Virus record (IMG/VR): IMGVR_UViG_3300045988_159006 | Span: 1 to 40,811 of that record | Strand: one strand, 5' to 3' | DNA length: 40,811 bases | Origin: a virus | Shown here: positions 1-20,990 of the stretch, one piece after another | Layout: each line of letters begins with the position of its first letter | How positions within the stretch are numbered: the stretch's first letter is position 1 | The notes under the pieces: model-generated | The model's input: only the letters and a program-made list of their open reading frames with translations | Database searches by the model: none | Told to the model about the DNA's origin: nothing | Program-made: the position numbers and the translations under genes

Positions 1-29
1 CGTGCCTCCAGCAGGATTCGAACCCGCGA
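1..29 (-). repeat. att core, left copy (duplicated 3' end of a tRNA gene)
   Basis: cgtgcctccagcaggattcgaacccgcga is identical to 40783-40811. Its reverse complement gives T-arm GCGGG-TTCGAAT-CCTGC followed by acceptor strand TGGAGGC. The sequence to its right (30-90) cannot be folded as the rest of a tRNA, so this copy is only the fragment. Confidence 0.8.
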
Positions 30-68
30 TCAAAAACCCCACAACCAGCAAAAATACCAACAACACCC

Positions 69-1166
69 CTAGGCGCCACGACAATCCCACGACGCCTGCA
101 AAACCCCATCCATAGCACGCGCAACCTCATCCAAATCACCATCAAAAAGATCCGCATAAACATCCAACGTCATCGCCGCCGACGCATGCCCCAACTGCCT
201 TTGCACAACCTTCACACTCGCCCCAGAAGCCACCATCAACCCCGCAGCCACATGCCGCAACCCATGCGGCGTCACCCACGGAAAATCCGCATCAGCCCTC
301 ATAGCACGCTGCACCGCACCATAAAACCACCCATCATAACCAGGCACCCGCATAAACCCACCATCCGACTCCCTAGGCCACAACAGCGCATCCCTAGCCT
401 TCCCCTCCATCAACGGCACCAGCATCTGCATCACCCTACGCGGCACCGCCACCGTCCGCCGCTCATGATTCTTCGGCGGCCCCACATGCACCTCATACCC
501 CACAGTCACCGCATTACGAGTAATACTAAGCCGGCCCCTAGCCTCATTCACATCACACACTCGAAGCGCCACCGCCTCACCCCACCGCAAACCAGTCGTC
601 GCCAATACCCACACAAGCTCCTGGTAACGGCTACACTGATCCACTAAAAACTGCACCTGCTCCACCGTCAAATACACCTTCTTCGACTTAGCGCGCCGCG
701 GCAACCGCACACCCCGCGCCGGGTTCGCTTTCAACAGCCCGTCCAGCACCGCTAAATCCAACACCTGGGCCAGGCAAGCGTGGGCGTGCCGGACTGTGGC
801 AGCTGCACGATCAATGCCCGCCACCCATTCCTGCACATCACTAGGCCTCACCCCCATGATTGACACGCCACCCCACCTAGGTCGCACATGCACTCGCCAT
901 GATTGCTCGGTTGTCCGCATGGTTGACGGCTTCAAATGGGTTTGCATAGCAAGCCACCGATCCCCCAATTCACCCACCGTGATAGCTGTTTTTATTGGCG
1001 CCCGCCACTCCCCAGCATGGATATCCGTAGCATTCTTAGCCGACCAAGCCTCCGCCTCCGCCTTGGTGCGGAAACCCTGCTTCGTGCGCCCCCGACCATC
1101 AGGCGACCGGTACTGAACCCGCCACGCATACCCCCTCGCTGTTTTGTATTTACGAATCGACGCCAT
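69..1166 (-). CDS. int: Tyrosine recombinase / phage integrase with N-terminal AP2-like arm-binding domain
   Basis: 365 aa. The N-terminus (RGYAWRVQYRSPDGRGRTKQGFRTKAEAEAW) is typical of the phage integrase N-terminal DNA-binding domain. The C-terminal catalytic region reads HGLRHVAAG...GHASAAMTLDVYADLF (HxxR...Y). The gene abuts the att repeat. Confidence 0.92.
   Translation of the reverse strand: MASIRKYKTARGYAWRVQYRSPDGRGRTKQGFRTKAEAEAWSAKNATDIHAGEWRAPIKTAITVGELGDRWLAMQTHLKPSTMRTTEQSWRVHVRPRWGGVSIMGVRPSDVQEWVAGIDRAAATVRHAHACLAQVLDLAVLDGLLKANPARGVRLPRRAKSKKVYLTVEQVQFLVDQCSRYQELVWVLATTGLRWGEAVALRVCDVNEARGRLSITRNAVTVGYEVHVGPPKNHERRTVAVPRRVMQMLVPLMEGKARDALLWPRESDGGFMRVPGYDGWFYGAVQRAMRADADFPWVTPHGLRHVAAGLMVASGASVKVVQRQLGHASAAMTLDVYADLFDGDLDEVARAMDGVLQASWDCRGA
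76..93. repeat. Candidate integrase arm-type site pair (CCACGACAATCCCACGAC), left arm
   Basis: The same 18-mer recurs at 40660-40677 in the same orientation. It consists of two tandem CCCACGAC(A) units. Confidence 0.45.
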
Positions 1167-1231
1167 CTTTGTTCCCTTTTGCTCCTTGTTCCCGAAAAGG
1201 GCCCCACCAAATCAGCAAGGGCCACAAAAAT

Positions 1232-1261
1232 TTACAGGCTAGTTACAGGCCAATTACGGGC
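1232..1261. repeat. Three phased TTAC(A/G)GGC repeats in the int upstream region
   Basis: ttacaggc at 1232 and 1243, ttacgggc at 1254 (11-12 bp spacing). They lie between the stop of the HIRAN gene and the int start. caacattgtcca is also repeated at 1263-1274 and 1342-1353. Confidence 0.4.
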
Positions 1262-1354
1262 CCAACATTGTCCACACTAGCGTCCACCAATCACCACAGG
1301 TCAAACCGTAAAAACAGGGCAAACTGCCGCATTAACACCTGCAACATTGTCCAT

Positions 1355-2410
1355 TTAATACTCACTTAGCGTCGCTTCCACCATCGCATTATCTTTATCA
1401 ATAGGGGTCACTGTGCAAGTCCAATTCGTCCGCAACGTTGCGCCGAAAGCATTCTGGGCATCCACATGCCCGTGAATCGTCCAATCCTTATGGTCAGCGC
1501 TCTGCACCGCAATGAAATCGAAAAGCCCCTCAAACTTCGCAGTAGACGGCGATTTTAACTGCTGCTTAATCCGATCGTGGCACAAATAACGAGCCCGGTT
1601 ATCACTCCACCCCATGATCCGATCAGCATCATAAGGCTCACTACTCGGACTACTGTATTCCGGCGAAAGCGTCGAAATAACGTTACTATACGACGTTGGA
1701 TAGGCAATAGCCTTCTCACCAATCCCCAATGTTCGTCCCCAACTGCCTTGGCCCCAAAGCGCAAGCCCACATAAAACAACACCAATAATGATTGCTAAAT
1801 TACGCAGTGTAGAGCCATTAATACCATCATTATCCTTGGTTGTATTACCGGCCTTAACGCTTTCCGCACCAGCAGTTGGCTTCACCACTGCCGTATGCGC
1901 TACCGTGCCGGACGGTACCTTAGCCGGTTGGATCTTGCTTAGTGCTGCTGGTCGGGCGTACGCAGAAGGAGCAGGCTTCGATGGCTTCGGCGGGGTAATG
2001 ACTTTACCTTTCTTGTCCCCCCGGTAAGCGTTAGGCACGCTATACGAAGATGCTTTAGGCACTAACTGCACGTTAGGTGGAATTGCCGTGTCAGTAGCAA
2101 GAAGATACAAGTGCAAGTTAATGAACCCATACTCATCACGCTTATATCTGCCTTGAACAATGGCCGTTTTCCCACTAGCCGCAATCCGATTAATAAACGG
2201 CAAATACGTTGCCGTGCGACTTCGAGAAATATATCCAACGGTTTGCCCTCCGTACCGGATACTAATGGCATTAGGATCATACGGATTATCCGGCTCCGGT
2301 ACCACCTCGAACAACGTAGCGGTCTCAGGAACCCGAATATTTTCATAAAACTCGGTTCCAACAGCTTTCACAGTCGGACGCTGCGAAGCCTGAAGAAGTA
2401 TGGGCTCCAT
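1355..2410 (-). CDS. Membrane-anchored HIRAN-domain protein (HIRAN - Pro/Ala/Lys linker - TM helix - C-terminal domain)
   Basis: 351 aa. HIRAN hallmark VVPEPDNPYDPNAISIRYGGQTVGYISRSR near the N-terminus. Low-complexity linker, hydrophobic helix LAIIIGVVLCGLALWG, then a ~125-aa domain with ...HGHVDAQNAFGATLRTNWTCTV. GC looks lower than the flanks. Confidence 0.7.
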   Translation of the reverse strand: MEPILLQASQRPTVKAVGTEFYENIRVPETATLFEVVPEPDNPYDPNAISIRYGGQTVGYISRSRTATYLPFINRIAASGKTAIVQGRYKRDEYGFINLHLYLLATDTAIPPNVQLVPKASSYSVPNAYRGDKKGKVITPPKPSKPAPSAYARPAALSKIQPAKVPSGTVAHTAVVKPTAGAESVKAGNTTKDNDGINGSTLRNLAIIIGVVLCGLALWGQGSWGRTLGIGEKAIAYPTSYSNVISTLSPEYSSPSSEPYDADRIMGWSDNRARYLCHDRIKQQLKSPSTAKFEGLFDFIAVQSADHKDWTIHGHVDAQNAFGATLRTNWTCTVTPIDKDNAMVEATLSEY

Positions 2411-2521
2411 GGTCGCTAGCTCACACCCACCTTCGCGGCTAGGGTTTCAATGCTTTGCGTGATACTCACAGGGGGTTCCTTTGCAAATAGTGGAGATCAA
2501 TGCTTGGGATAAGAGTCAGGG

Positions 2522-2941
2522 TCAGCTGAGGCTGAGGCCGCATGCGCTTACATGCCGGGTACGACCTACGCGGTAAAGGCGCTCCCAGGTGCGCAGCAGG
2601 TGCACGGTAACACCTAACTCGGCGGCCATGGCTACGGGCTCGGAATCGCATTCCCACGCGGCTTCTTCTACCAGGCCATCATCTAGCAGCTGGTTAGCGG
2701 CCCATTCGTCGGCTTCACGTTCATTATCTGGTGTGGAGCAGTCATGATTGTGATACGCATGCCCTAACTCGTGGGCAACAGCGCATACCCGGGTTATCGG
2801 GTCCAACCCATGCCGGGTATAGATAGTGCGAGTCAGGGGATGCCAGCATGCATTCATGCGTGGGGTAAGCGCCCCCGTCTCGACAAGACGAACATCGAAC
2901 CGACGCAATAAAAATTCCAGCCGTTGTTCAGTATCATTCAT
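2522..2941 (-). CDS. ImmA/IrrE-family (COG2856) zinc metallopeptidase
   Basis: 139 aa with HELGH (HExxH) followed by EREADEWAA, the usual ImmA/IrrE signature. Located in the lysogeny block downstream of an HTH gene. Confidence 0.75.
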   Translation of the reverse strand: MNDTEQRLEFLLRRFDVRLVETGALTPRMNACWHPLTRTIYTRHGLDPITRVCAVAHELGHAYHNHDCSTPDNEREADEWAANQLLDDGLVEEAAWECDSEPVAMAAELGVTVHLLRTWERLYRVGRTRHVSACGLSLS

Positions 2942-3128
2942 AATGGCTCCTCAAAAACTGATAATGAACTTAATCAAGTATGAAACAAATTCATGCCAGA
3001 AGCAATAAATTTTGGCGAAAAAATATGTGTAATAAATCTCAAAAACAAGGAAACCAAGACATAATCGCGTATATCTAAACTAAAAACCCCCGATACTGCC
3101 TGCTCAAACCCTGTTTTCAGGGCTGTAA

Positions 3129-3230
3129 CAAGCATATCAGGGGTCTTCGGAGTTGAACCCCAGCAATCAAGCTCAGCAATAAGACTGCGGTCCAAGCATA
3201 TCAGGGGTTTTCGGAGTTGAACCCCAGCAA
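3129..3230 (-). repeat. Two 38-nt near-identical direct repeats separated by a unique 26-nt spacer (mini-array-like)
   Basis: 3129-3166 and 3193-3230 read caagcatatcaggggt[c/t]ttcggagttgaaccccagcaa, with one mismatch (3145 c vs 3209 t). The spacer is 3167-3192. Each repeat holds a GGGGTT/AACCCC hairpin. The single substitution is a U-A to U.G change on the minus strand but a C:A mismatch on the plus strand. Confidence 0.6.
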
Positions 3231-3256
3231 CCCCAACACCTCAGCTTTCGAATCTT

Positions 3257-3745
3257 TTATGTGAAATGCTCCTCAATGGGGGGAGTCGCCTGCTGCGCGG
3301 CTACTCGCTCCACGCCCGCATTAATCCGGGCAATAATCGCGTCATCATCAAAAACATCAACAGCAGGTTTGCGCTGGGTGCTTCGGATACCAACAGGCTT
3401 GTTTTCGGAGGGGATGTGCCTTACCGTCTGCTCCAATATATTAGATTCAGGAACAATTCGGCGCGCCAGTTCCAGCACTAGGGCGGCATCATCGGCGGTC
3501 TCCAGGAGCTGCCCCTCCGAATCCAGATACTCAAGCACGTCTTCATGCTTGATCCTGCCTAATTCAACCAGCGCCAAGGTTTGATTAATGCCTAGCTCAT
3601 CGCATAGCCGTATCAAATCATCTGATGGCAGCCCTTCATTCAAACGCTTGTTGGCGGTTTTACGTGTAACTCCAAGGATCGACGCGATTTCCTGATCCGT
3701 TATCCGCCTGTGTGCTGATTCGCTCAACCATCGCTTGATCTCCAT
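3257..3745 (-). CDS. HTH DNA-binding regulator, candidate immunity repressor / ImmR-like partner of the ImmA protease
   Basis: 162 aa. N-terminal HTH (ITDQEIASILGVTRKTANKRLNEG). Divergent from a Cro-like gene across an AT-rich 160-bp region. Confidence 0.6.
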   Translation of the reverse strand: MEIKRWLSESAHRRITDQEIASILGVTRKTANKRLNEGLPSDDLIRLCDELGINQTLALVELGRIKHEDVLEYLDSEGQLLETADDAALVLELARRIVPESNILEQTVRHIPSENKPVGIRSTQRKPAVDVFDDDAIIARINAGVERVAAQQATPPIEEHFT

Positions 3746-3905
3746 ACAAATATGCTATCACTCTGGGTAATATTTTACTCAGTGGGTGTGCTGGGGGCTG
3801 GGGATTTAGTTATTTGCCGCATTTATATGAGTAATGCACGTTGCTCACTAACGGCTAATTGTGTAAATTCGGTTACATATCAACGCAAAGAAAGCTAAAG
3901 AGGGA
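3746..3905. promoter_or_regulatory. Divergent promoter/operator region of the first genetic switch
   Basis: AT-rich intergenic region between divergent HTH genes. Inverted half-sites ttactca (about 3775) and tgagtaa (about 3829). Confidence 0.45.
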
Positions 3906-4112
3906 ATGTATTTACTCAATTTAAATGAGGTTGATCGAGTTAAAAGAATGCATCAAATAGCCTCAAATACTGCATTAGCAGAAAAAACACAAATTAGTAG
4001 AAAAACCTGGTCAAGCGCCCTGAACACCCGGAAACCCACTATCACGGTTTTGGACGCTCTTGCCGATTTGGGTGCCCGGCCTGACAAAATTCTCGTTTTG
4101 GATGGGGCCTGA
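3906..4112 (+). CDS. Cro/XRE-like small HTH regulator
   Basis: 68 aa with HTH IASNTALAEKTQISRKTWSSAL. First gene of the rightward early operon. Confidence 0.65.
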   Translation: MYLLNLNEVDRVKRMHQIASNTALAEKTQISRKTWSSALNTRKPTITVLDALADLGARPDKILVLDGA

Positions 4113-4140
4113 GTAGCCCCGGTTCGTCGTAAAGCCCAGT

Positions 4141-4170
4141 AAAAAGCAAAAACCCCGCTTCACAGCGGGG
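4141..4170 (-). terminator. Intrinsic terminator hairpin whose U-tract lies on the minus strand
   Basis: ccccgc(4153-4158)-ttcaca-gcgggg(4165-4170), preceded on the plus strand by aaaaagcaaaaa. Read on the minus strand this is hairpin + tttttgcttttt. Confidence 0.5.
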
Positions 4171-4204
4171 CGGAACAAGAAACGATAAAGAAAGTATAAC
4201 ACGA

Positions 4205-4600
4205 ATGCATTATTTATTTAAAGTGAAGGTTCCTGGCACCCCGAACACGGTCGATGCAACCCTGATTGATGGGCGAATCTGGATCGCACTGTCGTCAGTG
4301 TGTAACAGCCTGGGCATCCACCAGCCCACGCAGCAGGACCGCCTAAAACTCACGTGCTGGGCGAAGATCGAGCGGATCCCCCTGGTGACCGAACGCGGCC
4401 GAGAACAAACCATGTACGTGATCGACCGCCGCACACTAACCATGTGGCTGGCCACCCTAGGTGTTTACCGCAACAAGGCCACGCGGAAAACCCTGGAAGC
4501 CTACCAAATGAACATCGACGACGTCCTAGACCGACTCCAACAAGGCCTGCGTGGGGAGAAAAACTACCCCACCGCACCACTAGCAGAGAAGGCGCAGTAA
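4205..4600 (+). CDS. P22 antirepressor N-terminal-domain-like protein
   Basis: 131 aa. The pattern IDGRIWIALSSVCNSLGI...QTMYVIDRRTLTMWLATL...LEAYQ resembles the P22_AR N-terminal domain. Confidence 0.5.
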   Translation: MHYLFKVKVPGTPNTVDATLIDGRIWIALSSVCNSLGIHQPTQQDRLKLTCWAKIERIPLVTERGREQTMYVIDRRTLTMWLATLGVYRNKATRKTLEAYQMNIDDVLDRLQQGLRGEKNYPTAPLAEKAQ

Positions 4601-4602
4601 GC

Positions 4603-4860
4603 ATGAGCCGCTGTAAAACCCCCGCATCTAAACGCCGCCGCCCGCGCCGGGAGGGGGAGTGGTTGACACTGCCGGAGGCCGCTGCATATACGAAGATTCA
4701 CCGCCAAACTCTGCGGGTGCTGCTGCTGAGTGGAGAGATCCCCTACAGCCGGAAAACCGCCCGCCCGCGCTCCCCATACCTGATCGAGCGTGAGCATTTG
4801 GACAGCTATCTTGCCCGGGTGAGTGATGATTGCCGTACCGCTGCTGGGGGAGTCGCCTAA
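4603..4860 (+). CDS. Excisionase-type / MerR-like HTH DNA-binding protein
   Basis: ATG at 4603 inside ORF 4354-4860. WLTLPEAAAYTKIHRQTLRVLLLSGEIPY is the typical Xis-family HTH. The upstream part of the ORF overlaps the previous gene. Confidence 0.6.
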   Translation: MSRCKTPASKRRRPRREGEWLTLPEAAAYTKIHRQTLRVLLLSGEIPYSRKTARPRSPYLIEREHLDSYLARVSDDCRTAAGGVA

Positions 4861-4983
4861 TGCCCAGGTACGGCACCGCAGTTATCGGCGATATGGACGA
4901 GGCAGTCGAAATCGCACTCCAGCAAGCTCGCGGTTTCATGCGTGAGCGCTCCTAAAACCTCTAAACCAGAAAGGAAACAAAGA

Positions 4984-5238
4984 ATGTCTGCTACCCCGTA
5001 TAGCACTGATCCGTACTACGACCCATATGAAGAGCTGGACCGGCGGTTTGACTATCGGGTTTTGGATGATGAAACCCGGGCGCTGCGGATCGCTGTGGGC
5101 CGACAGTTTAAGAATTTCGCCAGGAATCTGGAGGCAATGCTCGATGACAGCAGGGAGAAAAACCTGGCCTTAGAGCGGCTGGAGGAGGCGATGATGTGGG
5201 CGAATGCCTCGCTGGCCCGCGGTGCTGAGACCAGCTAG
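4984..5238 (+). CDS. Hypothetical protein
   Basis: ATG at 4984 preceded by gaaaggaaa. 84 aa with helical character. The ORF-track start at 4942 is a GTG without an RBS. Confidence 0.55.
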   Translation: MSATPYSTDPYYDPYEELDRRFDYRVLDDETRALRIAVGRQFKNFARNLEAMLDDSREKNLALERLEEAMMWANASLARGAETS

Positions 5239-5618
5239 CGGGATTAAGGATAGCCCTGGCCTGGTAGGCCGCCCCAAAGGGTGTGGGGGGTTCGATTCCC
5301 CCGGAGGGTGCTAGGCCCCAGCGTGGGGCGTGTTGTATAGCGAACTCGATAGTGGAAACACCTTAAGATGCCCTCCCTCTGTGGGGGAGGGCCAAGTCTA
5401 ACAGGGGCCTGATGTTTGGGCTCCTGTCAGGTTCATGCTCCGGTGAGGTAAAACCAGACTGCTTGTTGGTTTCGTGTTTGGTCAAGATATTGGTTGGTTT
5501 TACGCGGGTTCAACCCCCGCCATGAGCGCTACCCGCCTAACTAGCCGGGCGGGAACCTGGTGCCCCGTGGTCTTCCTCAGCCACGGGGCACCCCAAAACA
5601 GAAGTTAAGGAGTAGCCA
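5239..5618 (+). ncRNA. Candidate structured RNA region with two tRNA/tmRNA-like T-arm hairpins
   Basis: No credible ORF over 380 nt. T-arm-like GGGGG-TTCGATT-CCCCC (5286-5302) and GCGGG-TTCAACC-CCCGC (5504-5520). The second stacks on a 7-bp acceptor-like helix (5431-5437 with 5521-5527). There are at least five further hairpins, including a 12-bp stem at 5559-5592. Confidence 0.3.
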
Positions 5619-5936
5619 ATGACGAAGCTCAGCTACTTGGAAGAGGATGCTGCCCTGATTGTGGAGAACCTGCCGGAAGGGTTCGAAGCAACAGCCGAGG
5701 CGGCACCGCTTTTCCTGATCTACGCGGTGCTGATGCGTGCTAAAGGCATCTACACGACGCTGGAAGACGTCCACGATGCGTGGGCTGCTTGGCGCACCAC
5801 CACCAACCCAAACCATAGCGATTTAGTGCCCTTCGGCCAGCTTGATGCAGAAACCAGGTCGTTGGATCGCCCGTTCCTTCACGCAATCCATGCGGCAGCC
5901 CACATCCGAAACAGCCAAACCGAAAAGGAGTCATAA
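5619..5936 (+). CDS. Hypothetical protein
   Basis: 105 aa. RBS aaggag lies 7 nt upstream of the ATG. Confidence 0.6.
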   Translation: MTKLSYLEEDAALIVENLPEGFEATAEAAPLFLIYAVLMRAKGIYTTLEDVHDAWAAWRTTTNPNHSDLVPFGQLDAETRSLDRPFLHAIHAAAHIRNSQTEKES

Positions 5937-5937
5937 A

Positions 5938-6201
5938 ATGAATCCCGCATTTGTCATCTCAATGGTAGCGATAGCTATTTCTCTCACCGCCCTGGGCGTT
6001 TCAATCAGTGCCCACATGGCCGCCCGCGACTGCCGCAGGGTGACCGTGATGTTCATGACCACGGTGATGGAGTACCTGGATGGGGATGGCCAGGTAGGGG
6101 TTTGCGTGAAAAAAATCACTGGTGCCGCTGCTGATGCTGATGGTGATAAAAAACCAAATGATCGGGTGGTAAAGCGTCTCCGAGATGACCACAACCGCTA
6201 A
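5938..6201 (+). CDS. Small membrane protein
   Basis: ATG at 5938 after aaaaggag. N-terminal TM helix FVISMVAIAISLTALGVSI. Confidence 0.55.
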   Translation: MNPAFVISMVAIAISLTALGVSISAHMAARDCRRVTVMFMTTVMEYLDGDGQVGVCVKKITGAAADADGDKKPNDRVVKRLRDDHNR

Positions 6202-6481
6202 AACCACCAGCCGGCAACAGCGGCCGCTCACCCCTGACGGTATTCTCCTCGCCCCGTGCCATCAGGTGCTCCTCCCGTTTTGGGATGGGCGCCTGTACAT
6301 GGAGAAGGAAGAGATGATGCTGGCCCGCCATGAACAGGCAAAGTATCTTTGCCGCCAATGCCCGCTGCTAGAGGCATGCGGCCGCTACCTGGAGCGCATG
6401 GAAGAACAACGAATGCCCGTTGACGGGGTAGTAGCCGGCCGGTATTACACGCCGAAAAAACGCCGCCGGCGTAAAAAATAG
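6185..6481 (+). CDS. whiB: WhiB-family (Wbl) Fe-S transcription factor
   Basis: 98 aa. Cys pattern C..(n)..CRQCPLLEAC and a basic C-terminal tail (KKRRRRKK), as in actinophage WhiB-like proteins. Confidence 0.75.
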   Translation: MTTTAKTTSRQQRPLTPDGILLAPCHQVLLPFWDGRLYMEKEEMMLARHEQAKYLCRQCPLLEACGRYLERMEEQRMPVDGVVAGRYYTPKKRRRRKK

Positions 6482-6489
6482 TCGCACAC

Positions 6490-6526
6490 CTGCTAAGGGG
6501 ATCGAGTTTTTCGATACCCTTAGCAG
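6490..6526 (+). terminator. Long hairpin (15 of 16 bp paired) downstream of whiB
   Basis: ctgctaaggggatcga-gtttt-tcgatacccttagcag. No U-tract follows, so it may be a factor-independent I-shaped terminator or a protein-binding palindrome. Confidence 0.35.
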
Positions 6527-6558
6527 ACTCAAAACCGCAACAAGTGGCGCCCCAGATA

Positions 6559-6583
6559 GGGGGGTGATTATTAATCACCCCCC
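6559..6583. promoter_or_regulatory. Perfect 25-bp palindrome (12-bp arms) immediately upstream of the Bro antirepressor gene
   Basis: ggggggtgatta-t-taatcacccccc, ending 17 nt before the ATG at 6601. Confidence 0.5.
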
Positions 6584-6600
6584 AAGATTAAGGACTGCAA

Positions 6601-7410
6601 ATGGACAACAAGATCACACCATTCACATTCAACGATATCGAGGTGCGGGTTATTACCCGCGGCGGTGTCCCTTGGTGGGTTGCCGCCGATGTGGCCCACG
6701 CACTGGGGTACCGTGACGCGGGCAGGATAACCCGGTACGTGCGAGACCATCAAAAGGGGTCACAAAAATTGTGTACCCTTGGCGGCTCACAAGAGCTGCA
6801 GGTCATCAATGAGGCTGGCCTATACATGGCTATCATGAAATCCCATTCCCCACATGCCGAGAAGTTTCAGGATTGGGTGACCGAAGAAGTTTTGCCGGCG
6901 ATTCGGTCGCATGGTGGTTATCTCACCCCGGAGGCGACAGCCCAAGCGCTGTCTGACCCGGATTTCATTATCCGCTTGGCCACGCAGTTGAAGGAGGAGC
7001 GGGCCCAGCGTTTGGAGTTGGAAACCCGGGTGGAAGAAGCCGCGCCCAAGGTGATTTTTGCTGATGCTGTGAGCGCATCGACCACCTCGATCCTGGTAGG
7101 GGATTTGGCGAAGATCCTCAAAGGCAACTGTATTGATATTGGTGCTAACCGGCTCTTCACCTGGCTGCGGGCCCATGGATACCTCACCTCCCGCCGTGGT
7201 GCTGATTGGAACAGCCCCACCCAGAAAGCCATGGAATTAGGTCTCTTCGAGATTAAAGAAACCGTCATCACCCACGCCGATGGGCATATCACGGTTAACA
7301 AAACGCCGAAAGTCACGGGTAAAGGCCAACAATATTTTGTTGCTCGTTTCCTTGACGGCCGGTTCGATATCAACGACACAGGCGTCACAGTGACGAAACA
7401 AGGAGTATAA
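6601..7410 (+). CDS. Bro-N / KilAC-domain phage antirepressor
   Basis: 269 aa. Bro-N motif FTFNDIEVRVITRGGVPWWVAADVAHALGY. C-terminal KilAC/ANT-like region ILVGDLAKIL...ANRLFTWLRAHGYL. Confidence 0.8.
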   Translation: MDNKITPFTFNDIEVRVITRGGVPWWVAADVAHALGYRDAGRITRYVRDHQKGSQKLCTLGGSQELQVINEAGLYMAIMKSHSPHAEKFQDWVTEEVLPAIRSHGGYLTPEATAQALSDPDFIIRLATQLKEERAQRLELETRVEEAAPKVIFADAVSASTTSILVGDLAKILKGNCIDIGANRLFTWLRAHGYLTSRRGADWNSPTQKAMELGLFEIKETVITHADGHITVNKTPKVTGKGQQYFVARFLDGRFDINDTGVTVTKQGV

Positions 7411-10701: not shown

Positions 10702-11315
10702 GCCGCGACCCATTCTTCGACGCCATTCGGGAGCGGCTTCTACCTGACGCCACCAACACCGAAATCGAAAACCTGTTCGCAAGGTATTTGAGCGCCCAGC
10801 CCGAGCCTGCATTCATCGCCCACATTGCTGGTGACCCCAAACCCCAAGGATCTAAACGCTACGTGGGTGGCGGGCGCGTCATCGAAGACAACCCCGGCAC
10901 ACGGGCGTGGCGGCAATCCGCACAACTCCAACTCGCCACCTAACGCTACGTGGGTGGCGGGCGCGTCATCGAAGACAACCCCGGCACACGGGCGTGGCGG
11001 CAATCCGCACAACTCCAACTCGCCACCTACCGCAGCCGCCAACTGAAAGCCCCCATCGACGAAGCGGTACTGGTACAAGCGGTTTTCTTCCTACCCCGCC
11101 CTAAAAGCGTCCGCAGCGTGCTCCCCACATCTAAATCCTCATACGACCTCGACAAGCTATGCCGGGCACTAGGGGACGCCCTAGAAGGGGCAGGTGTGCT
11201 CAAAAACGACTCCCGAATCACCACATGGCACGCCCGTAAACGCTACGCCGAAGCTGACAGCAACGGGCCAGCTATTACCGGCGTGTTCCTACGAATCTAT
11301 AAGGAAAAACAATAA
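10698..11315 (+). pseudogene. rusA: RusA-family Holliday junction resolvase split by an in-frame 87-bp tandem duplication that creates a TAA at the junction
   Basis: The ORFs 10698-10943 and 10950-11315 are in the same frame. The joined sequence has RusA features (DPKPQGSKRY...; YDLDKLCRALGDALEGAGVLKNDSRIT). The stop at 10941-10943 is formed by the last t of copy 1 plus the first aa of copy 2. Confidence 0.7.
10855..11028 (+). repeat. Exact 87-bp tandem duplication (2 copies)
   Basis: 10855-10941 and 10942-11028 are identical (aacgctacgtgggtggcggg...ctcgccacct). The duplicated peptide is visible in several ORF-track frames. Confidence 0.95.
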
Positions 11316-11638
11316 TGTGTACGTTGTTAGACGAAAAAACCCGGCGCGCCCGTAAACCACACGAGTGCGATATGTGCGGGGCAACAATCAACCTTGGTGA
11401 GGAATACCGCTGGGAAAAATATGTAAACTGCGATGGCCTGTATGAGCTGAAAACCTGCCTAGCCTGCGACGTGGCCTTCTCCGAAGTATGGGACTACGTG
11501 CCTGACTGGTGGGATGGGGGTGTCACTTTCGAGGACTACCAAGAATGGGCGACCGACCCCGATTACGATGACACCCCCGCCAAGCAGGCCTGGCGTCAGC
11601 GTGCCGGCTACACCAGAGAAGACGAGACCTTCAAATGA
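11315..11638 (+). CDS. Cys-rich hypothetical protein (zinc-ribbon-like)
   Basis: 107 aa with HECDMCG...CLAC. Start and stop are coupled to the neighbouring genes. Confidence 0.55.
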   Translation: MCTLLDEKTRRARKPHECDMCGATINLGEEYRWEKYVNCDGLYELKTCLACDVAFSEVWDYVPDWWDGGVTFEDYQEWATDPDYDDTPAKQAWRQRAGYTREDETFK

Positions 11639-12129
11639 TCCTCGATGTTACTTGCGGTGCCAGGCTCATGTGGCACAACAAACACCACCCCGATGTGATC
11701 TACGCCGACCAGCGGACGACGCAACACCAGCTATCAGATGGCCGGGAAATCACCATCAACCCGAACATTCGGCTCGACTACCGCGCCCTGCCCTTCCGTG
11801 ACAACACATTCCACCTCATCAACCTAGACCCACCCCACCTCCAGCGCGCCGGGGCGACTGGGTGGATGTGCCAGAAGTATGGGGTTCTCATGACCACGTG
11901 GAGGGAAGACCTGCGCCAGTGCTTCGTTGAGTGTTTCCGGGTGCTTGCCCCGGGCGGCACGCTCACCCTCAAGTGGAATCAAGTCCACATCCCGCTACGG
12001 GAGGTACTGGAGCTAGCCCCATACCCGCCCCTGTATGGCACCCGCCACGGCAAAAACAATGCTACGTCTTTTACGGTTTTCCATAAACCAATGGGATCAG
12101 GAGGTTTTCGAGTTGAACCCCAGCCCTGA
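11635..12129 (+). CDS. Small SAM-dependent DNA methyltransferase (DPPH motif IV)
   Basis: 164 aa. ILDVTCGARLMW (motif I-like) and LINLDPPHL (D-P-P-H/Y catalytic motif of N6-A/N4-C methyltransferases). Confidence 0.65.
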   Translation: MILDVTCGARLMWHNKHHPDVIYADQRTTQHQLSDGREITINPNIRLDYRALPFRDNTFHLINLDPPHLQRAGATGWMCQKYGVLMTTWREDLRQCFVECFRVLAPGGTLTLKWNQVHIPLREVLELAPYPPLYGTRHGKNNATSFTVFHKPMGSGGFRVEPQP

Positions 12130-12574
12130 TCCTAAAGCCATCTGGCAAACTGTGCTTGCTACTGCCTACCAGGAGTACACCGCGGCGAAAAATAGTGACA
12201 GGTCGCATCGTGATGGAGTGGTGGTCACCCCCGTGGAAATCGTAGATTTTCAAGTCAGAGCGCTGAAAGACTCCCTTGCCGCCCAAGGCGCCACACTAGC
12301 TGACCCACGGGTAGAAATCCTCGACCCCTTCGGCGGCACCGGCATCTACTGCGCCAGAATAATGCAACTATCTGGGCTCACACCGGATGAACTCGACGAC
12401 CTCTATCACTACCGCCTACGGATGATCGAAATCGACCCTATCGCCTGCCAGATCGCTGATGCCAACCTCAAAACAGTCTTCGAAGAAGAAACAGGGCGAC
12501 CACCCCGCCGCAGCATTGTTATCTGCGCTAATACCTTTACGATCCCTACCGGAATGGAAAAACCCCATGTCTAA
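12035..12574 (+). CDS. N-terminal fragment of a large N6-adenine DNA methyltransferase-like protein (type ISP/IIG-like), lacking motif IV. Start uncertain.
   Basis: GVVVTPVEIVDFQVRAL and ILDPFGGTGIY (motif X/I region) are present. The ORF stops before any NPPY/DPPY motif. The first 95 nt overlap the preceding gene, and there is no good ATG or RBS after 12129. Confidence 0.45.
   Translation: MAPATAKTMLRLLRFSINQWDQEVFELNPSPDPKAIWQTVLATAYQEYTAAKNSDRSHRDGVVVTPVEIVDFQVRALKDSLAAQGATLADPRVEILDPFGGTGIYCARIMQLSGLTPDELDDLYHYRLRMIEIDPIACQIADANLKTVFEEETGRPPRRSIVICANTFTIPTGMEKPHV
12096..12124 (+). repeat. Third, degenerate copy of the 3129/3193 repeat core
   Basis: atcaggaggttttcgagttgaaccccagc versus atcaggggttttcggagttgaaccccagc. 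There is an exact 14-mer agttgaaccccagc plus flanking matches with two 1-nt indels. It lies at the overlap of the two methyltransferase ORFs. Confidence 0.55.
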
Positions 12575-12737
12575 AAGCAAACGAACTAAACGAACCGTAA
12601 TCTGCCTCCGCTGCCGAAATCTTAAACGCCACGAGTGCCGCGGCCTCTGTAAATGCTGCTATAACCATGTGCGAGAGCACCGCAGCGGTAACGACACGCT
12701 CGACAATTACCCGCTCTACGCAGACCAAGAAAAATAA
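12567..12737 (+). CDS. Small Cys-rich (zinc-finger-like) protein
   Basis: ATG at 12567 in ORF 12459-12737. 56 aa with CLRC....C..C.CC..H. Confidence 0.45.
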   Translation: MSKSKRTKRTVICLRCRNLKRHECRGLCKCCYNHVREHRSGNDTLDNYPLYADQEK

Positions 12738-12781
12738 TCCCCGCCATAAAATACCAACTAGGTGACACTTAAGGAGCCATC

Positions 12782-13354
12782 ATGAGTCTGTACGATCTTT
12801 ACCCGCCTGTGCCTGCAGAGTTAGAGCCGTACCGTGGATTGACTGTTGGTGCAGTGCCGATCGAGTTTAGGGGGTGTTTGGTGGGGCAGCCATGCATTGA
12901 AATATCTTCTGGCACTCCCGTTTTACTGTTAGAGAGAATTTCTCCATCATGGCGGGGAGTCGCAGTATTGGATCTAACAATTGATTGCGTCCGCTACGCA
13001 AAAGTAGCAGATTTAGCACTCGCCCTGGAGGAAGAATTACCAACATTCTTATCTGTCGAATCATTCTATCTGATCCATCATGCAAGTGAATATGAGGATC
13101 CTCTGGTATGTGGGAACTCGGATATCAGTTCTCTCTACGGGGTGCGACTGAATCTTATCCCGCAGAATGTCTGGGGCGACATGATAGGCGACTTCTGGTT
13201 TTTCGATCTCGACAGGCAGCGCAAGGTGCTCCTGATGGATTACAGAGGAGGTGGTTGCTTGGTAGAGGACCCGGATGCTGTGGCGAAATGGTGGGTGGGT
13301 GCGTGCCGGCTGATGCTCATGGTTGAACGAACCTCCGGCGAATTAATGTGGTAA
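12782..13354 (+). CDS. Hypothetical protein in a lower-GC island (weak resemblance to SUKH/SMI1-KNR4-type immunity folds)
   Basis: 190 aa. RBS aaggag 6 nt upstream. Visibly more AT-rich than the flanks. No confident motif. Confidence 0.55.
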   Translation: MSLYDLYPPVPAELEPYRGLTVGAVPIEFRGCLVGQPCIEISSGTPVLLLERISPSWRGVAVLDLTIDCVRYAKVADLALALEEELPTFLSVESFYLIHHASEYEDPLVCGNSDISSLYGVRLNLIPQNVWGDMIGDFWFFDLDRQRKVLLMDYRGGGCLVEDPDAVAKWWVGACRLMLMVERTSGELMW

Positions 13355-13393
13355 AGAACACATTCACATCGCCCTTAAAGCCTATACCCCCAC

Positions 13394-13422
13394 TTGAAGA
13401 ATGCAGCGTGACGCTGTATAAT
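13394..13422 (+). promoter_or_regulatory. Near-consensus promoter TTGAAG-17-TATAAT
   Basis: ttgaag 13394-13399, 17-nt spacer, tataat 13417-13422. Followed by a 5'-UTR hairpin gtaagcc-aaac-ggcttac and an RBS ggagg. Confidence 0.6.
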
Positions 13423-13481
13423 AAAGAGTGTAAGCCAAACGGCTTACAGAAAACTCAATAGTGGAGGGGAGGTGACCCCAG

Positions 13482-13616
13482 ATGACCGACAAGGTTAGCC
13501 TGGCTCTCTCGGCGATTGCCGTAGCCACCGGCATCCTGACCTACTTGCAAGGCAGGAAACCCGGAGGCAAGCACCGGAAGCGGAAACGCTACCGCCGCGG
13601 TAAGCGCCAACGGTAA
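13482..13616 (+). CDS. 44-aa single-TM peptide with strongly basic tail (MTDKVSLALSAIAVATGILTYLQGRKPGGKHRKRKRYRRGKRQR)
   Basis: ATG at 13482 after ggaggggagg. Framed by a consensus promoter and a 15-bp terminator hairpin. Below the ORF-track length cutoff. Confidence 0.5.
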   Translation: MTDKVSLALSAIAVATGILTYLQGRKPGGKHRKRKRYRRGKRQR

Positions 13617-13655
13617 CCCCCGGGTGAGCTAAAACGTACTTAGCTCACCCGGGGG
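13617..13655 (+). terminator. Perfect 15-bp stem hairpin directly after the 44-aa ORF
   Basis: cccccgggtgagcta-aaacgtact-tagctcacccggggg. There is no U-tract. Confidence 0.5.
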
Positions 13656-13702
13656 ACACCCCACCACTCTACCACGTGAATCCCCAGGAAGGAGGAAAGC
13701 CC

Positions 13703-13864
13703 ATGAAAGCGCGACCCATGTACATCGTATCGGTAGTTACATTTACCGCTGCGGTCGCCACCGCGCTATATAGCAAAAGCGTAAGCGTCGCCACCGCTGC
13801 GCTACTCGCCATTGCCGCTGTGATACTCGGATATCTCACCTGTACTGGCCGCTGGCGCCGCTAA
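13703..13864 (+). CDS. 53-aa two-TM small membrane protein
   Basis: ATG at 13703 after ggaaggagga. MKARPMYIVSVVTFTAAVATALY...VATAALLAIAAVILGYL. Confidence 0.55.
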   Translation: MKARPMYIVSVVTFTAAVATALYSKSVSVATAALLAIAAVILGYLTCTGRWRR

Positions 13865-13871
13865 CCAGCAA

Positions 13872-13904
13872 CCCCACCAGCTTCGGCTAGTGGGGTCCTT
13901 TATT
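13872..13904 (+). terminator. Rho-independent terminator
   Basis: ccccaccagc-ttcg-gctagtgggg followed by tcctttatt. Confidence 0.6.
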
Positions 13905-13927
13905 AATCCTCCATGAAAGGTTCCACG

Positions 13928-14161
13928 ATGATTGATATCACCCTTGCCAAAGACATTCCGCACCGAACAACCATCACTGATGCCGGAATAGAGTACTGGA
14001 CCGTCACGGCTATCACCCAGCACATCGGCGTCGCTAAGGCCACTTTCGCTAGCTACGTTGCCCGTGGCCAAGCCCCACAACCCGCATTCCAGCTAGAACG
14101 CACCCGCCTATGGGACGCCGCCGAAATCAAACGATGGCACGCCTCACGCCCCACAAAGTAA
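13928..14161 (+). CDS. HTH DNA-binding protein (Xis/MerR-like)
   Basis: WTVTAITQHIGVAKATFASYVARGQAP...WDAAEIKRW. The ATG at 13928 has aaagg upstream. An alternative ATG is at 13913. Confidence 0.55.
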   Translation: MIDITLAKDIPHRTTITDAGIEYWTVTAITQHIGVAKATFASYVARGQAPQPAFQLERTRLWDAAEIKRWHASRPTK

Positions 14162-14267
14162 CCACACCCCCGCCCCTCGCCTCCCAGGGTGCGGTGAATG
14201 CCACTAGTGGCCAAGCCCCAGCTTTACCATTAGCCCACGCATACCAGCTGGGGAACGGGAGGAAACC

Positions 14268-15020
14268 ATGGGCGCCACCACCACTGAGACAGGCCTACGT
14301 GCCACGCTACGGGGCCTACAGGACCTCTGGGTAGAACTGGAAGCCGCCAAGTACCCCACCCCCACCCGTATAACGAACCCCCAGGGGGGTAAGAAACCCG
14401 GGGCCCACCCCACTACACCAGGCGGAGCCGCCACCACCCTAGACATCGACCTCACCCTTAGGCTCTTCGAGGTCGCCCGAGACATCGCCAACCACATCCA
14501 ACCAAGCCGCATCCTCACCTGCGACGCCCACCAACTCCTAGGCTTCCTCGCCTTCAATGCCGGACTCATCGCCAACCTAGACTTCGCCCCCGACATCCAC
14601 GCCGAACTCCGTCACCAAGAATCCAGACTCCAGGAATTCCTCCGCGCCGGGCAGCCCATGGTGTGTGATGCTGGTGAGCCGTGGCTGACGTGGCGAACTA
14701 TTATCCACGCCGCACGCGCCAATGGGTATATGGTTAGCCGTGCGCTGCTACGCAAGTGGGCCGAGCGTGGACGCATTGACACTCGCCTAAGCACTGATCG
14801 CATCGCGTGCTATCGACTCGGTGAGGTTCTAGGACACCTGAAAAATATGCCTTTGCCTGCTGTCACAGCAGGTGATATAATCGACGCGACGACGCAGGCT
14901 GCAGAAAAACCGGTGGAGGGTTTAGCGCCTGCGATTCGTCATCAGGGGTGTTTTGATGGCTCCTCACCCCGGATAGCTCGTGGGGCAGGGGATTGCCGCT
15001 CCACTCCTCCTACTTTCTGA
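14268..15020 (+). CDS. Hypothetical protein
   Basis: 250 aa with RBS gggagga upstream. Located before the HNH/terminase block. Confidence 0.55.
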   Translation: MGATTTETGLRATLRGLQDLWVELEAAKYPTPTRITNPQGGKKPGAHPTTPGGAATTLDIDLTLRLFEVARDIANHIQPSRILTCDAHQLLGFLAFNAGLIANLDFAPDIHAELRHQESRLQEFLRAGQPMVCDAGEPWLTWRTIIHAARANGYMVSRALLRKWAERGRIDTRLSTDRIACYRLGEVLGHLKNMPLPAVTAGDIIDATTQAAEKPVEGLAPAIRHQGCFDGSSPRIARGAGDCRSTPPTF

Positions 15021-15040
15021 CCTTCAGGGAGGGAATCCAT

Positions 15041-15355
15041 ATGGCAGCATGGCGAAACGGCGCCCCTACCCACGTGAAAACCCATATCCGCAAGAAAATC
15101 CTCACCCGCGACGGCTACACATGCCAACAATGCGGCAGCCCAGCTGCCGAAGTGGACCACATCGACAACGCCCGCGGGCCCGGATACGATGCCTTTAGCA
15201 ATCTCCAATCGCTCTGTGTCCCATGCCACAAGGCCAAAACGCAGCGTGAAGCCCAGGCGGGGCGCGCCGCCCGGGTAGCGAGAGTGAAGCGACCCCCCAC
15301 CCCCTCATTTTGTGATATTCCCCACATTATCAAGTTTGATACCGACCGGGGGTAG
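15041..15355 (+). CDS. HNH endonuclease (terminase-associated)
   Basis: DGYTCQQCG....VDHI....G.....NLQSLCVPCHKAKT is the HNH motif. ATG at 15041 after gggaggga. Confidence 0.85.
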   Translation: MAAWRNGAPTHVKTHIRKKILTRDGYTCQQCGSPAAEVDHIDNARGPGYDAFSNLQSLCVPCHKAKTQREAQAGRAARVARVKRPPTPSFCDIPHIIKFDTDRG

Positions 15356-15473
15356 GGGGATACCCCCCCGAGGCGGCCCTCGGGCCGCGGAGGGCAAAGG
15401 GCCTGCCGGCCTGTACGGGTTCCCAAGGCCCACCTAAAGGAAAGGTTAGGAAAACCTAAGAACACGAAAGGGG

Positions 15474-15896
15474 GTGCCGACCGTGCCCGGACCACCCCCG
15501 AAGAGGAATGCCCGCCGCCGCAATGCTAGACCCGACTGGGTGACGCTCCCCGCCGATGGGCGGAAGGGGCGAGCGCCCCGATGGCCACTGCCCGGCCGAG
15601 TGCAACGCGGTTGGGCGGAACTCTGGCGTCGCCCTCAGGCAGTCATGTGGGAACGCAACCACGACGAATTTTTAGTTGCTCGCTATCTCGTCCTGCGGAA
15701 CGCCATTCAAGACGAGCTCGATCACAGCGTGGTCAACGCCACCGCCATGGCCGAGCTTCGCCAAATCGAAGACCGGCTGGGGCTCTCACCCATGGCCATG
15801 AAACGTCTCCAATGGGAAATCGGCGATGTTGAGCAGTCCAAACCCGAAGATGATGGGGTGGTGATCGACGCCCATGACCGCTTCGCTAATCTCTGA
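15474..15896 (+). CDS. terS: Terminase small subunit (P27-family-like)
   Basis: 140 aa with GTG start after gaaagggg. Position upstream of TerL, plus WERNHDEFLVARYLVLRN...ELRQIEDRLGLSPMAMKRL. Confidence 0.7.
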   Translation: MPTVPGPPPKRNARRRNARPDWVTLPADGRKGRAPRWPLPGRVQRGWAELWRRPQAVMWERNHDEFLVARYLVLRNAIQDELDHSVVNATAMAELRQIEDRLGLSPMAMKRLQWEIGDVEQSKPEDDGVVIDAHDRFANL

Positions 15897-19193: not shown

Positions 19194-19334
19194 GCGTCCT
19201 GATCCGCGCCGGGGTCGAACCCAAAGCAGCTGCTGACCTGGCCGGCCTGCCCGGGATCCGGTTCACCGGGGCAACCCCCGTATCACTACGGGAGAAAACT
19301 TAAACAACACCCATGGGAGGGAGGTGCTAGCCAT

Positions 19335-20552: not shown

Positions 20553-20553
20553 A

Positions 20554-20934
20554 ATGTCTTACGTTGCTGCTATTTTTATTCAGCGAGCCGATGAATCGCA
20601 GGATGAAATTGTAGCTCGTGCTAACCAGCTTATTGCTGCGAATTTTTCCGCGATAGAGGCTGTGAGGACCGTTCGAGTTATGGCAAATGATCCTGGGCGT
20701 GCTGAGGACTTCGGGATTGTTGAGATTGATGTTATGCAGTCACGCAATCCTGAGGCGTTAGCTTTATTGCGGAGCATTTTCATGCTCCTTTGCGAAGAAA
20801 CAAATTGGGGCATGGAGCTTAATTGGGATGGTATTGAAGCAGTGGAACCTGATTTTGGTATTTACCTACGTCGTAATTACGGCACCAAGTACCCGGTTGA
20901 ATTTGATGAAGATGAGGAATTTCTTCTTGCGTAG
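20554..20934 (+). CDS. Candidate cognate immunity protein of the MuF-toxin
   Basis: 126 aa, acidic. It starts 2 nt after the toxin stop, lies in the same lower-GC segment and is followed by a terminator. Confidence 0.5.
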   Translation: MSYVAAIFIQRADESQDEIVARANQLIAANFSAIEAVRTVRVMANDPGRAEDFGIVEIDVMQSRNPEALALLRSIFMLLCEETNWGMELNWDGIEAVEPDFGIYLRRNYGTKYPVEFDEDEEFLLA

Positions 20935-20952
20935 TTTGGGCTAATCCAACCT

Positions 20953-20990
20953 AAAACCCGCGGCCTTGTAAGAAGAACGCGGGTTTTCTC
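20953..20990 (+). terminator. Rho-independent terminator
   Basis: aaaacccgcg-(15 nt)-cgcgggtttt ctc. Confidence 0.6.

Follow-up and report, generated by a model that had tools for sequence, protein, structure and literature searches.

The gene at positions 1355 to 2410 on the minus strand of IMG/VR virus record IMGVR_UViG_3300045988_159006, whose whole stretch of 40,811 nucleotides was analyzed and is called the window below, encodes a 351-amino-acid protein with a HIRAN domain that is predicted to be tethered to the inner face of the membrane. What is new here is an undescribed family of tail-anchored HIRAN proteins, together with a lineage-specific fusion that adds a folded domain outside the membrane, in a candidate exclusion factor encoded in the lysogeny module of a prophage. 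The reading favored here, with a probability of about 0.4, is that the gene is expressed in lysogeny and that its product acts in exclusion or defence by binding free 3' DNA ends at the membrane, possibly with an M78 metalloprotease as its partner.

The reading frame is complete, with an ATG start and a stop codon at positions 1355 to 1357, and the sequence of its product agrees with the one quoted in an earlier first-pass annotation of the same DNA. In a comparison with two sister phages (variants spanning a synonymous divergence, dS, of 0.12 to 0.22), the ratio of nonsynonymous to synonymous substitution rates (dN/dS) was 0.14 to 0.23 for the whole gene, 0.05 for the HIRAN part and 0.19 for the outside domain. 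In both linkers the ratio was around 0.5, namely, 0.52 for residues 134 to 199 and 0.43 for residues 222 to 261. Homologs with 90 to 99% identity are present on many oral metagenome contigs, and at least 20 clusters, defined at 90% identity, keep the frame intact. Judged by the dN/dS values of the whole gene and of its HIRAN part, the open reading frame is a functional gene under purifying selection and not a chance frame. The G+C content of the gene is 49.6%, compared with 57.7% for the window, and that of the adjoining regulatory region is equal to it or lower still. No catalytic domain is present in the protein. The first-pass annotation had described a gene of lower G+C content whose product consists of a HIRAN domain, a linker, one transmembrane helix and a C-terminal domain, with no visible catalytic domain; these points were all borne out.

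The cytoplasmic HIRAN domain and its ordered C-terminal extension comprise residues 1 to 133 (positions 2012 to 2410, minus strand), a segment delimited by Pfam, AlphaFold2, Foldseek and conservation. The Pfam family PF08797 (HIRAN) matched residues 14 to 73 with 31.4 bits (E = 1.7e-7), the gathering score of the family being 24.7 bits. A profile built from 45 family members matched the bacterial HIRAN structure 3k2y at 8.7e-6 and the HIRAN domain of HLTF at about 0.05. In the AlphaFold2 model, which was made from the alignment of 45 relatives, the predicted local distance difference test score (pLDDT) of residues 1 to 133 was above 89. When this segment was compared with the PDB by Foldseek, the best 17 matches were all HIRAN structures (HLTF and lp_0118), with probabilities of 0.98 to 1.00 and target-normalised TM scores of 0.48 to 0.57. 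The protein is thus a bona fide HIRAN-domain protein by sequence, profile and predicted fold, and the placement of the domain at the N terminus by the first-pass annotation was confirmed by the profile search and by the AlphaFold and Foldseek checks alike.

Binding of 3' DNA ends by the domain is putative, and the residues of its pocket are partly conserved. The motif E39-P-D-N-P-Y-D45 and the residues S50, R52 and Y60 are invariant or nearly so among the 45 family members. In HLTF, the residues R71, Y72, Y73, N91, Y93, D94 and K113 are those which we take to form the 3'-end-binding pocket. The equivalents of Y73, N91, Y93, D94 and K113 in the window protein are Y22, N42, Y44, D45 and R63, and these are conserved in the family. 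The equivalent of R71 is E20, and that of Y72 is F21, a position held by Ala in most relatives. The HIRAN domains of HLTF and of Lactobacillus plantarum lp_0118 (PDB 4S0N, 4XZF, 6KCS and 3K2Y) have the same fold as the model, with a probability of 1.00 and target TM scores of 0.5 to 0.57, and share with it the (D/N)NPYD..AI..R and GY/GH motifs of the 3'-end pocket. The proteins differ in what surrounds the domain: in HLTF, HIRAN is combined with an SNF2 motor and a RING domain, and in lp_0118 it is a free-standing domain, whereas here it is tethered to the membrane. In addition to the differences at the R71 and Y72 positions, the window protein has an extra conserved YxVPxAY extension which HLTF and lp_0118 do not have. 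This ordered extension, residues 106 to 133, carries the sequence PKASSYSVPNAY (residues 118 to 129; positions 2024 to 2059, minus strand), which represents a family-wide motif PKxxxYxVPxAY following the HIRAN core, as seen from both conservation and the model. Within the motif, P126 is invariant in the family alignment and Y123, V125, A128 and Y129 are conserved, and AlphaFold2 modelled it with a pLDDT of about 94 to 98.

Next to the HIRAN part, on the cytoplasmic side, comes a disordered and basic linker with many Pro, Ala and Lys residues (residues 134 to 199; positions 1814 to 2011, minus strand; pLDDT of about 50), which differs in length and sequence among relatives. The net charge is +9 over residues 106 to 204, and the C-terminal part is acidic. 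A single transmembrane helix is predicted at residues 200 to 221 (positions 1748 to 1813, minus strand), with a Kyte-Doolittle hydropathy of 1.94 over residues 202 to 220 and an AlphaFold2 helix at residues 200 to 219 with a pLDDT of 87 to 90. Both lines of evidence support the one hydrophobic helix that had been read from the sequence. The linker of about 95 residues that had been placed before it exists, but its length was overestimated: about 66 residues are disordered, and residues 106 to 133 are ordered. The transmembrane helix aligns with the C-terminal tail anchors of relatives. Behind it lies an extracytoplasmic stalk rich in Ser and Pro (residues 222 to 261; positions 1628 to 1747, minus strand; pLDDT of about 55).

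No N-terminal signal sequence was found in the 351-residue protein. Its predicted topology is bitopic, with the N terminus inside and the C terminus outside, since two independent comparisons agree, one with the tail-anchored relatives of the HIRAN part and the other with the exported relatives of the C-terminal domain. In 21 of the 33 short anchored relatives, 0 or 1 residue is left after the transmembrane helix, which places their HIRAN domain in the cytoplasm.

The C-terminal part of the protein, residues 262 to 351 (positions 1358 to 1627, minus strand), is predicted to be a folded extracytoplasmic domain, with the motifs LKSPSTAKF and VDAQNAFGATLR and the residues Cys277 and Cys332. It was modelled as one helix and a four-stranded sheet with a pLDDT of 87 to 98, and phrog_13160 matched residues 269 to 341 at 8.1e-15. 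The C-terminal domain of about 125 residues proposed earlier is therefore real and recurrent in other proteins, although its size was off, as about 90 residues are folded behind a stalk of about 40. A profile search with the domain gave more than 1377 protein matches. The NCBIfam model NF052676 (YPYG_dom) scored 25.8 bits, under its cut-off of 30, no Pfam family matched the domain, and no PDB relative was found by sequence search. Fold matches to NTF2-, cystatin- or VirB8-like structures in the PDB were weak and non-significant (E of 0.05 or higher), and no fold family is claimed for this reason.

Among viral protein models, Foldseek against BFVD clearly matched the outside domain to a lipoprotein of Gordonia phage Sidious and a protein of Corynebacterium phage Juicebox. 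A hydrophobic segment (signal peptide, lipobox or transmembrane helix) precedes the domain in 175 of 187 relatives, 36 of which have a lipobox. Cys277 and Cys332 co-vary, both being present in 25 and both absent in 14 of 49 sequences (39 of 49 concordant), as expected of an exported, disulfide-bonded domain, and the domain is probably disulfide-bonded. Small phage lipoproteins and membrane proteins such as the members of phrog_13160, the Sidious lipoprotein, Kita gp16 and the Juicebox protein are exported and, as judged from profiles and predicted folds, homologous to residues 262 to 351. The proteins of the phrog_13160 type are 100 to 280 residues long and have an N-terminal signal peptide, a lipobox or a zinc ribbon plus a transmembrane helix; none has a HIRAN domain. 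The outside domain thus appears to stem from a large family that includes lipoproteins and membrane proteins of both phages and bacteria. In around 60 Gordonia phages, a lipobox homolog of the domain is encoded in reverse orientation, flanked by the genes of the tail chaperone and the tape measure, a classic site for morons. In Gordonia phage Kita it is gene 16 (locus L098, positions 2423 to 2740, on the opposite strand), which encodes a 105-residue lipoprotein with a LIGGC lipobox and is annotated as hypothetical only.

In an exhaustive search of 1.84 billion representative proteins, which gave 2818 matches, the combination of a HIRAN domain with this outside domain was found in the window protein's own cluster only. 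No separate outside-domain gene beside a HIRAN gene, as a precursor of the fusion, was found in any sister-prophage locus that was fetched. By this distribution, the fusion of the outside domain is specific to the phage lineage of Corynebacterium matruchotii, the host of the prophage as described below.

The layout shared by the family consists of an N-terminal HIRAN domain, the PKxxxYxVPxAY extension, a variable charged linker and a C-terminal transmembrane helix. The last was present in 79 of 99 relatives outside the lineage of the window phage, with 0 to 53 residues after the helix in all anchored relatives, compared with 130 residues in the window protein. In view of the 79 anchored relatives, the combination of HIRAN and anchor is not a one-off. 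In the databases the proteins are named only "HIRAN domain-containing protein" (in Corynebacterium hansenii, Arthrobacter, Rothia, Mycolicibacterium and a Caudoviricetes metagenome-assembled genome). In the full-text literature, no description of membrane-anchored HIRAN proteins was found, and the sole mention of HIRAN in a phage was that of an open reading frame of Arthrobacter phage Vulpecula. Judged from the sequences, HIRAN plus linker plus C-terminal anchor is an undescribed family that is widespread in Actinomycetota.

Two subfamilies can be distinguished. The single-HIRAN proteins, 170 to 250 residues long, are from Corynebacterium and relatives and were found in prophage lysogeny modules only. 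The double-HIRAN proteins, 380 to 450 residues long and C-terminally anchored, are from Micrococcales and are widespread in Arthrobacter and Rothia. A double-HIRAN gene of Arthrobacter agilis is an opposite-strand insert within a prophage, and in another Arthrobacter such a gene lies beside a resolvase. In Kocuria (at least 16 species), a double-HIRAN gene with C-terminal transmembrane helices is a syntenic core chromosomal gene, with pepN (aminopeptidase N), an ABC1-type kinase gene and an aldehyde dehydrogenase gene as neighbors (locus L056, positions 5869 to 7011, and 17 other loci). In cultured phages, HIRAN genes were found in the lysogeny regions of Propionibacterium phage E6 (gp33) and Vulpecula (ORF 28, unannotated). 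Among 50,697 phage records, no match was obtained to positions 1 to 6000 of the window by megablast or to the protein by tblastn (E of 1e-5 or lower); a relaxed tblastn search of phage records (E of 1 or lower) gave weak matches to the outside domain in Gordonia phages and one HIRAN match. A scan of the GTDB species representatives with the single protein gave no relative.

In the window, the HIRAN gene is part of a leftward lysogeny operon, all on the minus strand, in the order repressor, M78/ImmA-like protease, HIRAN gene and integrase. The first gene encodes a prophage repressor with a helix-turn-helix (HTH) domain (positions 3257 to 3745, minus strand), which matched phrog_18815 at 2e-45 and the transcriptional repressor family phrog_19097 at 4e-26. 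The second encodes an ImmA/IrrE-like M78 metalloprotease with a HELGH motif (positions 2522 to 2941, minus strand; PF06114 at 26.6 bits, cut-off 22; phrog_87 at 3e-18). The gene of a tyrosine integrase (positions 69 to 1166, minus strand; PF00589 at 63.4 bits; phrog_1 at 1e-71) begins 188 bp downstream of the HIRAN gene. The operon diverges from a Cro-like gene (positions 3906 to 4112, with an HTH_26 match), which faces away from the repressor gene, and from an early region of the antirepressor type. This gene order confirmed that the HIRAN gene is proximal to the integrase and on the same strand as the lysogeny genes, as had been stated earlier.

The pairing of the M78 and HIRAN genes is constant. 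In nine of nine independent prophage lineages of the Corynebacterium type (the window and loci L007, L008, L011, L012, L013, L014, L015 and L038), an M78 gene lies directly upstream of the single-HIRAN gene on the same strand. Downstream sequence is available for eight of these lineages, and in all eight the integrase gene follows the HIRAN gene within 2.5 kb. The paired M78 and HIRAN genes overlap by 4 nucleotides in L007 and L013 and are 14 nucleotides apart in L011, and in these three lineages they are translationally coupled. Variable cargo lies between the HIRAN gene and the integrase in some lineages (L014 and L015). In L014 (Corynebacterium silvaticum KL0182), this cargo includes a HipA_2-like kinase gene (26.8 bits, cut-off 27) and a DUF3037 gene, indicating that the slot also accepts cargo of the toxin-antitoxin or defence type. 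The HIRAN gene of the same locus (positions 5914 to 6596) is split into two overlapping frames, by a frameshift or a sequencing error. A survey of homologs near integrases was therefore positive for the single-HIRAN subfamily but not for the double-HIRAN relatives in Kocuria, which are chromosomal core genes. The slot itself is the moron or defence slot that the first-pass annotation had recognized, although the gene behaves there more like a fixed partner of M78 than like a free-floating moron.

In the window, a spacer of 111 bp (positions 2411 to 2521, minus strand) separates the M78 and HIRAN genes and contains a promoter-like site and a candidate ribosome-binding site, AAGGTGGG, at positions 2433 to 2426. 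Three phage variants share the spacer at 98% identity, compared with 92 to 96% in their coding regions, which suggests that it is a constrained regulatory element. The hexamers TTGCAA (2486 to 2481) and TATCAC (2464 to 2459) of a promoter proposed earlier are present, although not at the positions of about 2440 to 2470 given for it then; they lie 16 nucleotides apart here and 15 nucleotides apart in two sister phages, but the -10 hexamer lacks its final T and a consensus promoter scan did not report the site. The proposed promoter at 2486 to 2459 is weak and is considered as a possibility only.

The window is one complete prophage integrated in a tRNA gene, from attL to attR, as judged from its ends: the 29-nucleotide sequence CGTGCCTCCAGCAGGATTCGAACCCGCGA at positions 1 to 29 resembles a tRNA T arm and is repeated identically and directly at positions 40783 to 40811. 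The repeat is probably the attachment core, with insertion into the 3' end of a tRNA gene. No complete tRNA was detected inside the window by ARAGORN. On long contigs with the same prophage, the proteins of the host flanks, including a type II-C Cas9, are exact matches to those of Corynebacterium matruchotii. By its flanks and gene content, the window is a siphoprophage of this dental-plaque bacterium. It is probably of the cos-packaging type, since an HNH endonuclease gene (positions 14993 to 15355, plus strand; phrog_333 at 3e-22) immediately precedes the terminase genes, an arrangement shared with HK97-like phages that use cos packaging.

The position of the gene and the nature of its product recall the superinfection exclusion (Sie) proteins of other temperate phages, such as Sie2009 of Tuc2009, SieF7/2AB (Orf2/3 of TP901-1) and Ltp of TP-J34, whose genes also lie between integrase and repressor and whose products are membrane-associated, as is predicted here. 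SieF7/2AB consists of a membrane protein and a protein with a metalloprotease zinc motif (PMC7693887), resembling the pair of M78 protease and anchored HIRAN protein. The window protein showed no similarity to Sie proteins in sequence or in profile (Pfam, PHROG, PADLOC and NCBIfam), and its PHROG matches are all to families of unknown function. The known Sie proteins are small, carry an N-terminal hydrophobic segment or lipid anchor, act outside or within the membrane and have no cytoplasmic DNA-binding domain. Their lactococcal and streptococcal hosts belong to a different phylum from Corynebacterium. The Sie precedent would accordingly be functional and positional and not one of sequence.

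Bacterial HIRAN domains in conflict or toxin-antitoxin contexts are known from HipN and HipL, in which HIRAN is combined with HipS-like or Hip kinase domains, and from the PADLOC candidate PDC-M03 (PMC8262856; PMC11706625). In contrast to the soluble HipN and HipL, the window protein has no HipS-like domain and no Hip kinase gene among its neighbors in the window; a HipA_2-like gene near a HIRAN homolog was found in one other prophage only, the borderline case in L014. The PADLOC model PDC-M03B matched only 30 residues of the HIRAN core (residues 34 to 63, E = 0.008). The gene product is, by these comparisons, neither a member of a characterized Sie family nor of the HipN/HipL or PDC-M03 group. 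Assignment to any known defence system was rejected because the PADLOC matches were marginal only, and the PADLOC and literature searches agreed with the earlier statement that no defence system with this architecture has been described. A further comparison is with the ImmR/ImmA (ICEBs1) and DdrO/IrrE switches, in which, as here, an HTH repressor and an M78 (IrrE N-terminal-like) protease are encoded in one operon. We know of no membrane-anchored, DNA-end-binding third component in these switches.

According to the favored reading of an exclusion or defence protein, a lysogen would make the HIRAN protein constitutively, and the tethered HIRAN domain would patrol the inner face of the membrane and bind the free 3' end of linear DNA on entry. 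Once its end is bound, the incoming genome would be unable to circularise or to become established, and the outcome would be superinfection exclusion or defence. The M78 protease may cooperate with the HIRAN protein, as in the pair SieF7/2AB. The outside domain may provide further exclusion at the cell surface, or it may bring the protein to the places where phages attack. The cos genomes of actinobacteriophages typically carry 3' single-stranded overhangs. In Hip kinase systems, HIRAN domains have been suggested to sense the ends of phage DNA (PMC8262856), and membrane-associated Sie genes of proven function occupy the region between integrase and repressor in temperate phages of Gram-positive bacteria (PMC7693887). 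Positional support also comes from the relatives, the exported homolog of the outside domain being a moron in Gordonia phages and the double-HIRAN relative of A. agilis a prophage insert.

Several points weigh against this reading. No PADLOC, Pfam, NCBIfam or annotated PHROG family ties the protein to exclusion or defence. The argument from 3' overhangs draws on general knowledge of actinobacteriophages and not on phages of this host, and the HIRAN pocket is only partly HLTF-like, with Glu in place of R71 and, in most relatives, Ala in place of Y72. The gene is a fixed neighbor of M78 and not variable cargo, which fits a role in the lysogeny switch equally well. The architecture also serves outside phages, since Kocuria carries membrane-anchored double-HIRAN relatives as core genes. 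A bolder form of the reading, which we consider doubtful, is that tail-anchored HIRAN proteins constitute a new class of prophage immunity, in which the protein, at the cytoplasmic face of the membrane, would capture the entering 3' end or report it to the M78 protease, which would couple DNA entry to a switch by proteolysis. In the lineage of the window phage, the outside domain would also read events at the cell surface, so that a single chain would link phage attack on the outside to DNA capture on the inside.

As an alternative, the HIRAN protein could be an accessory of the lysogeny switch, which is considered unlikely. Its HIRAN domain would sense DNA damage in the form of 3' ends or of single-stranded DNA where forks are stalled or broken, and would control the adjacent M78 protease, which would cleave the repressor; for instance, the protein could keep the protease at the membrane as long as no DNA ends are present. 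The gene would then govern induction and not defence. What argues for such a role is that in all nine lineages the M78 and HIRAN genes follow the repressor gene as a constant, co-oriented pair, with the overlaps or the 14-nucleotide gap in three of them, and that the HIRAN gene is more constant than the cargo before the integrase in L014 and L015. The HIRAN domain of HLTF also recognizes 3' ends at stalled forks (cited in PMC8262856). However, a membrane anchor would be odd in a sensor of chromosomal damage, the folded outside domain would be without an obvious role, and the conserved spacer between the two genes in the window may hold a promoter of its own. Switches of the ImmA/ImmR type are known to work without such a partner in other phages and in integrative and conjugative elements.

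Abortive infection is a distinctly unlikely explanation, in which HIRAN domains would bind the many DNA ends of a replicating or packaging phage and the transmembrane helices would cluster and permeabilise the membrane, killing the cell ahead of progeny release. A sensor domain joined to a very hydrophobic C-terminal helix, with no enzymatic domain and in a prophage lysogeny module, would suit this design, and effectors consisting of transmembrane segments only are common in defence systems. Yet a single helix on a long flexible tether would be a weak pore former, induction of the resident prophage itself would trigger the device, the Kocuria core-gene relatives argue against a toxic design, and PADLOC gave no match beyond the marginal ones. 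It is improbable that the protein serves as lysogenic conversion with a cellular type of DNA maintenance, anchoring or protecting DNA ends at the membrane in repair, segregation or uptake with no specific anti-phage role, a function that it would share with the double-HIRAN core-gene products of Micrococcales. The synteny of the anchored double-HIRAN relatives in at least 16 Kocuria species and their wide occurrence in Arthrobacter and Rothia are consistent with such a function, but the single-HIRAN subfamily was found in prophage lysogeny modules only, double-HIRAN genes too lie in prophages or next to recombinase genes in some cases, and the fused outside domain is typical of phage lipoproteins. 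That the gene is an accidental chimera without function, made by a deletion that fused a tail-anchored HIRAN gene to a neighboring gene of the lipoprotein type, is highly improbable. The two domains are combined in one cluster only among the representative proteins searched, and some gene callers give shorter products (177 to 251 residues) that hold the C-terminal part only; against this, both halves are under purifying selection (dN/dS of 0.05 and 0.19) and the frame is intact in the 20 or more clusters described above.

Other elements were observed in and around the prophage. The sequence TGGACAATGTTG occurs in two exact copies (positions 1263 to 1274 and 1342 to 1353, minus strand), 79 bp apart, in the spacer between the HIRAN and integrase genes and nowhere else in the window, with 0.19 expected by chance; the copies may be arm-type sites of the integrase or regulatory sites. 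Between the M78 and repressor genes, a 38-nucleotide repeat with an internal GGGGT...ACCCC hairpin is present at positions 3129 to 3166 and 3193 to 3230, the copies being 97% identical and 64 nucleotides apart, and a weaker copy lies at positions 12089 to 12126. This repeat could be an operator, a terminator or a small-RNA element. An exact 18-nucleotide repeat, CCACGACAATCCCACGAC, lies near both prophage ends (positions 76 to 93 and 40660 to 40677), with one copy in the 3' end of the integrase gene, and a perfect tandem duplication of 87 nucleotides, in two copies, lies in the early or replication region (positions 10855 to 11028). An early gene (positions 4942 to 5238, plus strand) encodes a 98-residue protein with an Acb2/Tad1 hairpin domain (PF24729 at 51.9 bits, cut-off 27) and, by this match, is a probable anti-defence gene whose product is a candidate sponge for the signalling nucleotides of CBASS or Thoeris. 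In C. matruchotii, the prophage sits about 3.5 kb from a type II-C cas9-cas1-cas2 locus (L001, positions 12810 to 18169; L005, positions 12641 to 19244). On a 639-kb contig (L004, positions 11541 to 21056), the integrase was called at 262 residues only and is followed by the right-hand end of the phage, with lysis and tail genes. The same junction of integrase and right end is present in L002, which indicates tandem prophages or assembly through an excised circular form.

It is proven that prophage genes between integrase and repressor can supply functions in exclusion and defence, but almost none are known for Corynebacterium or oral actinobacteria. HIRAN has so far been known mainly from replication-fork repair. 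If the favored reading is true, the window protein would be the first in exclusion or defence to work by placing a DNA-3'-end-binding module at the inner membrane face, the site where phage DNA enters. The signal that activates ImmA-type switches is a long-standing open question. That the HIRAN gene is constantly paired with the gene of an ImmA-like protease points to an exclusion system of two components or else to an input that such switches have been missing. Because the family is small (about 200 residues per protein), widespread in Actinomycetota and represented by core genes in Kocuria, both its phage and its cellular roles are directly testable.

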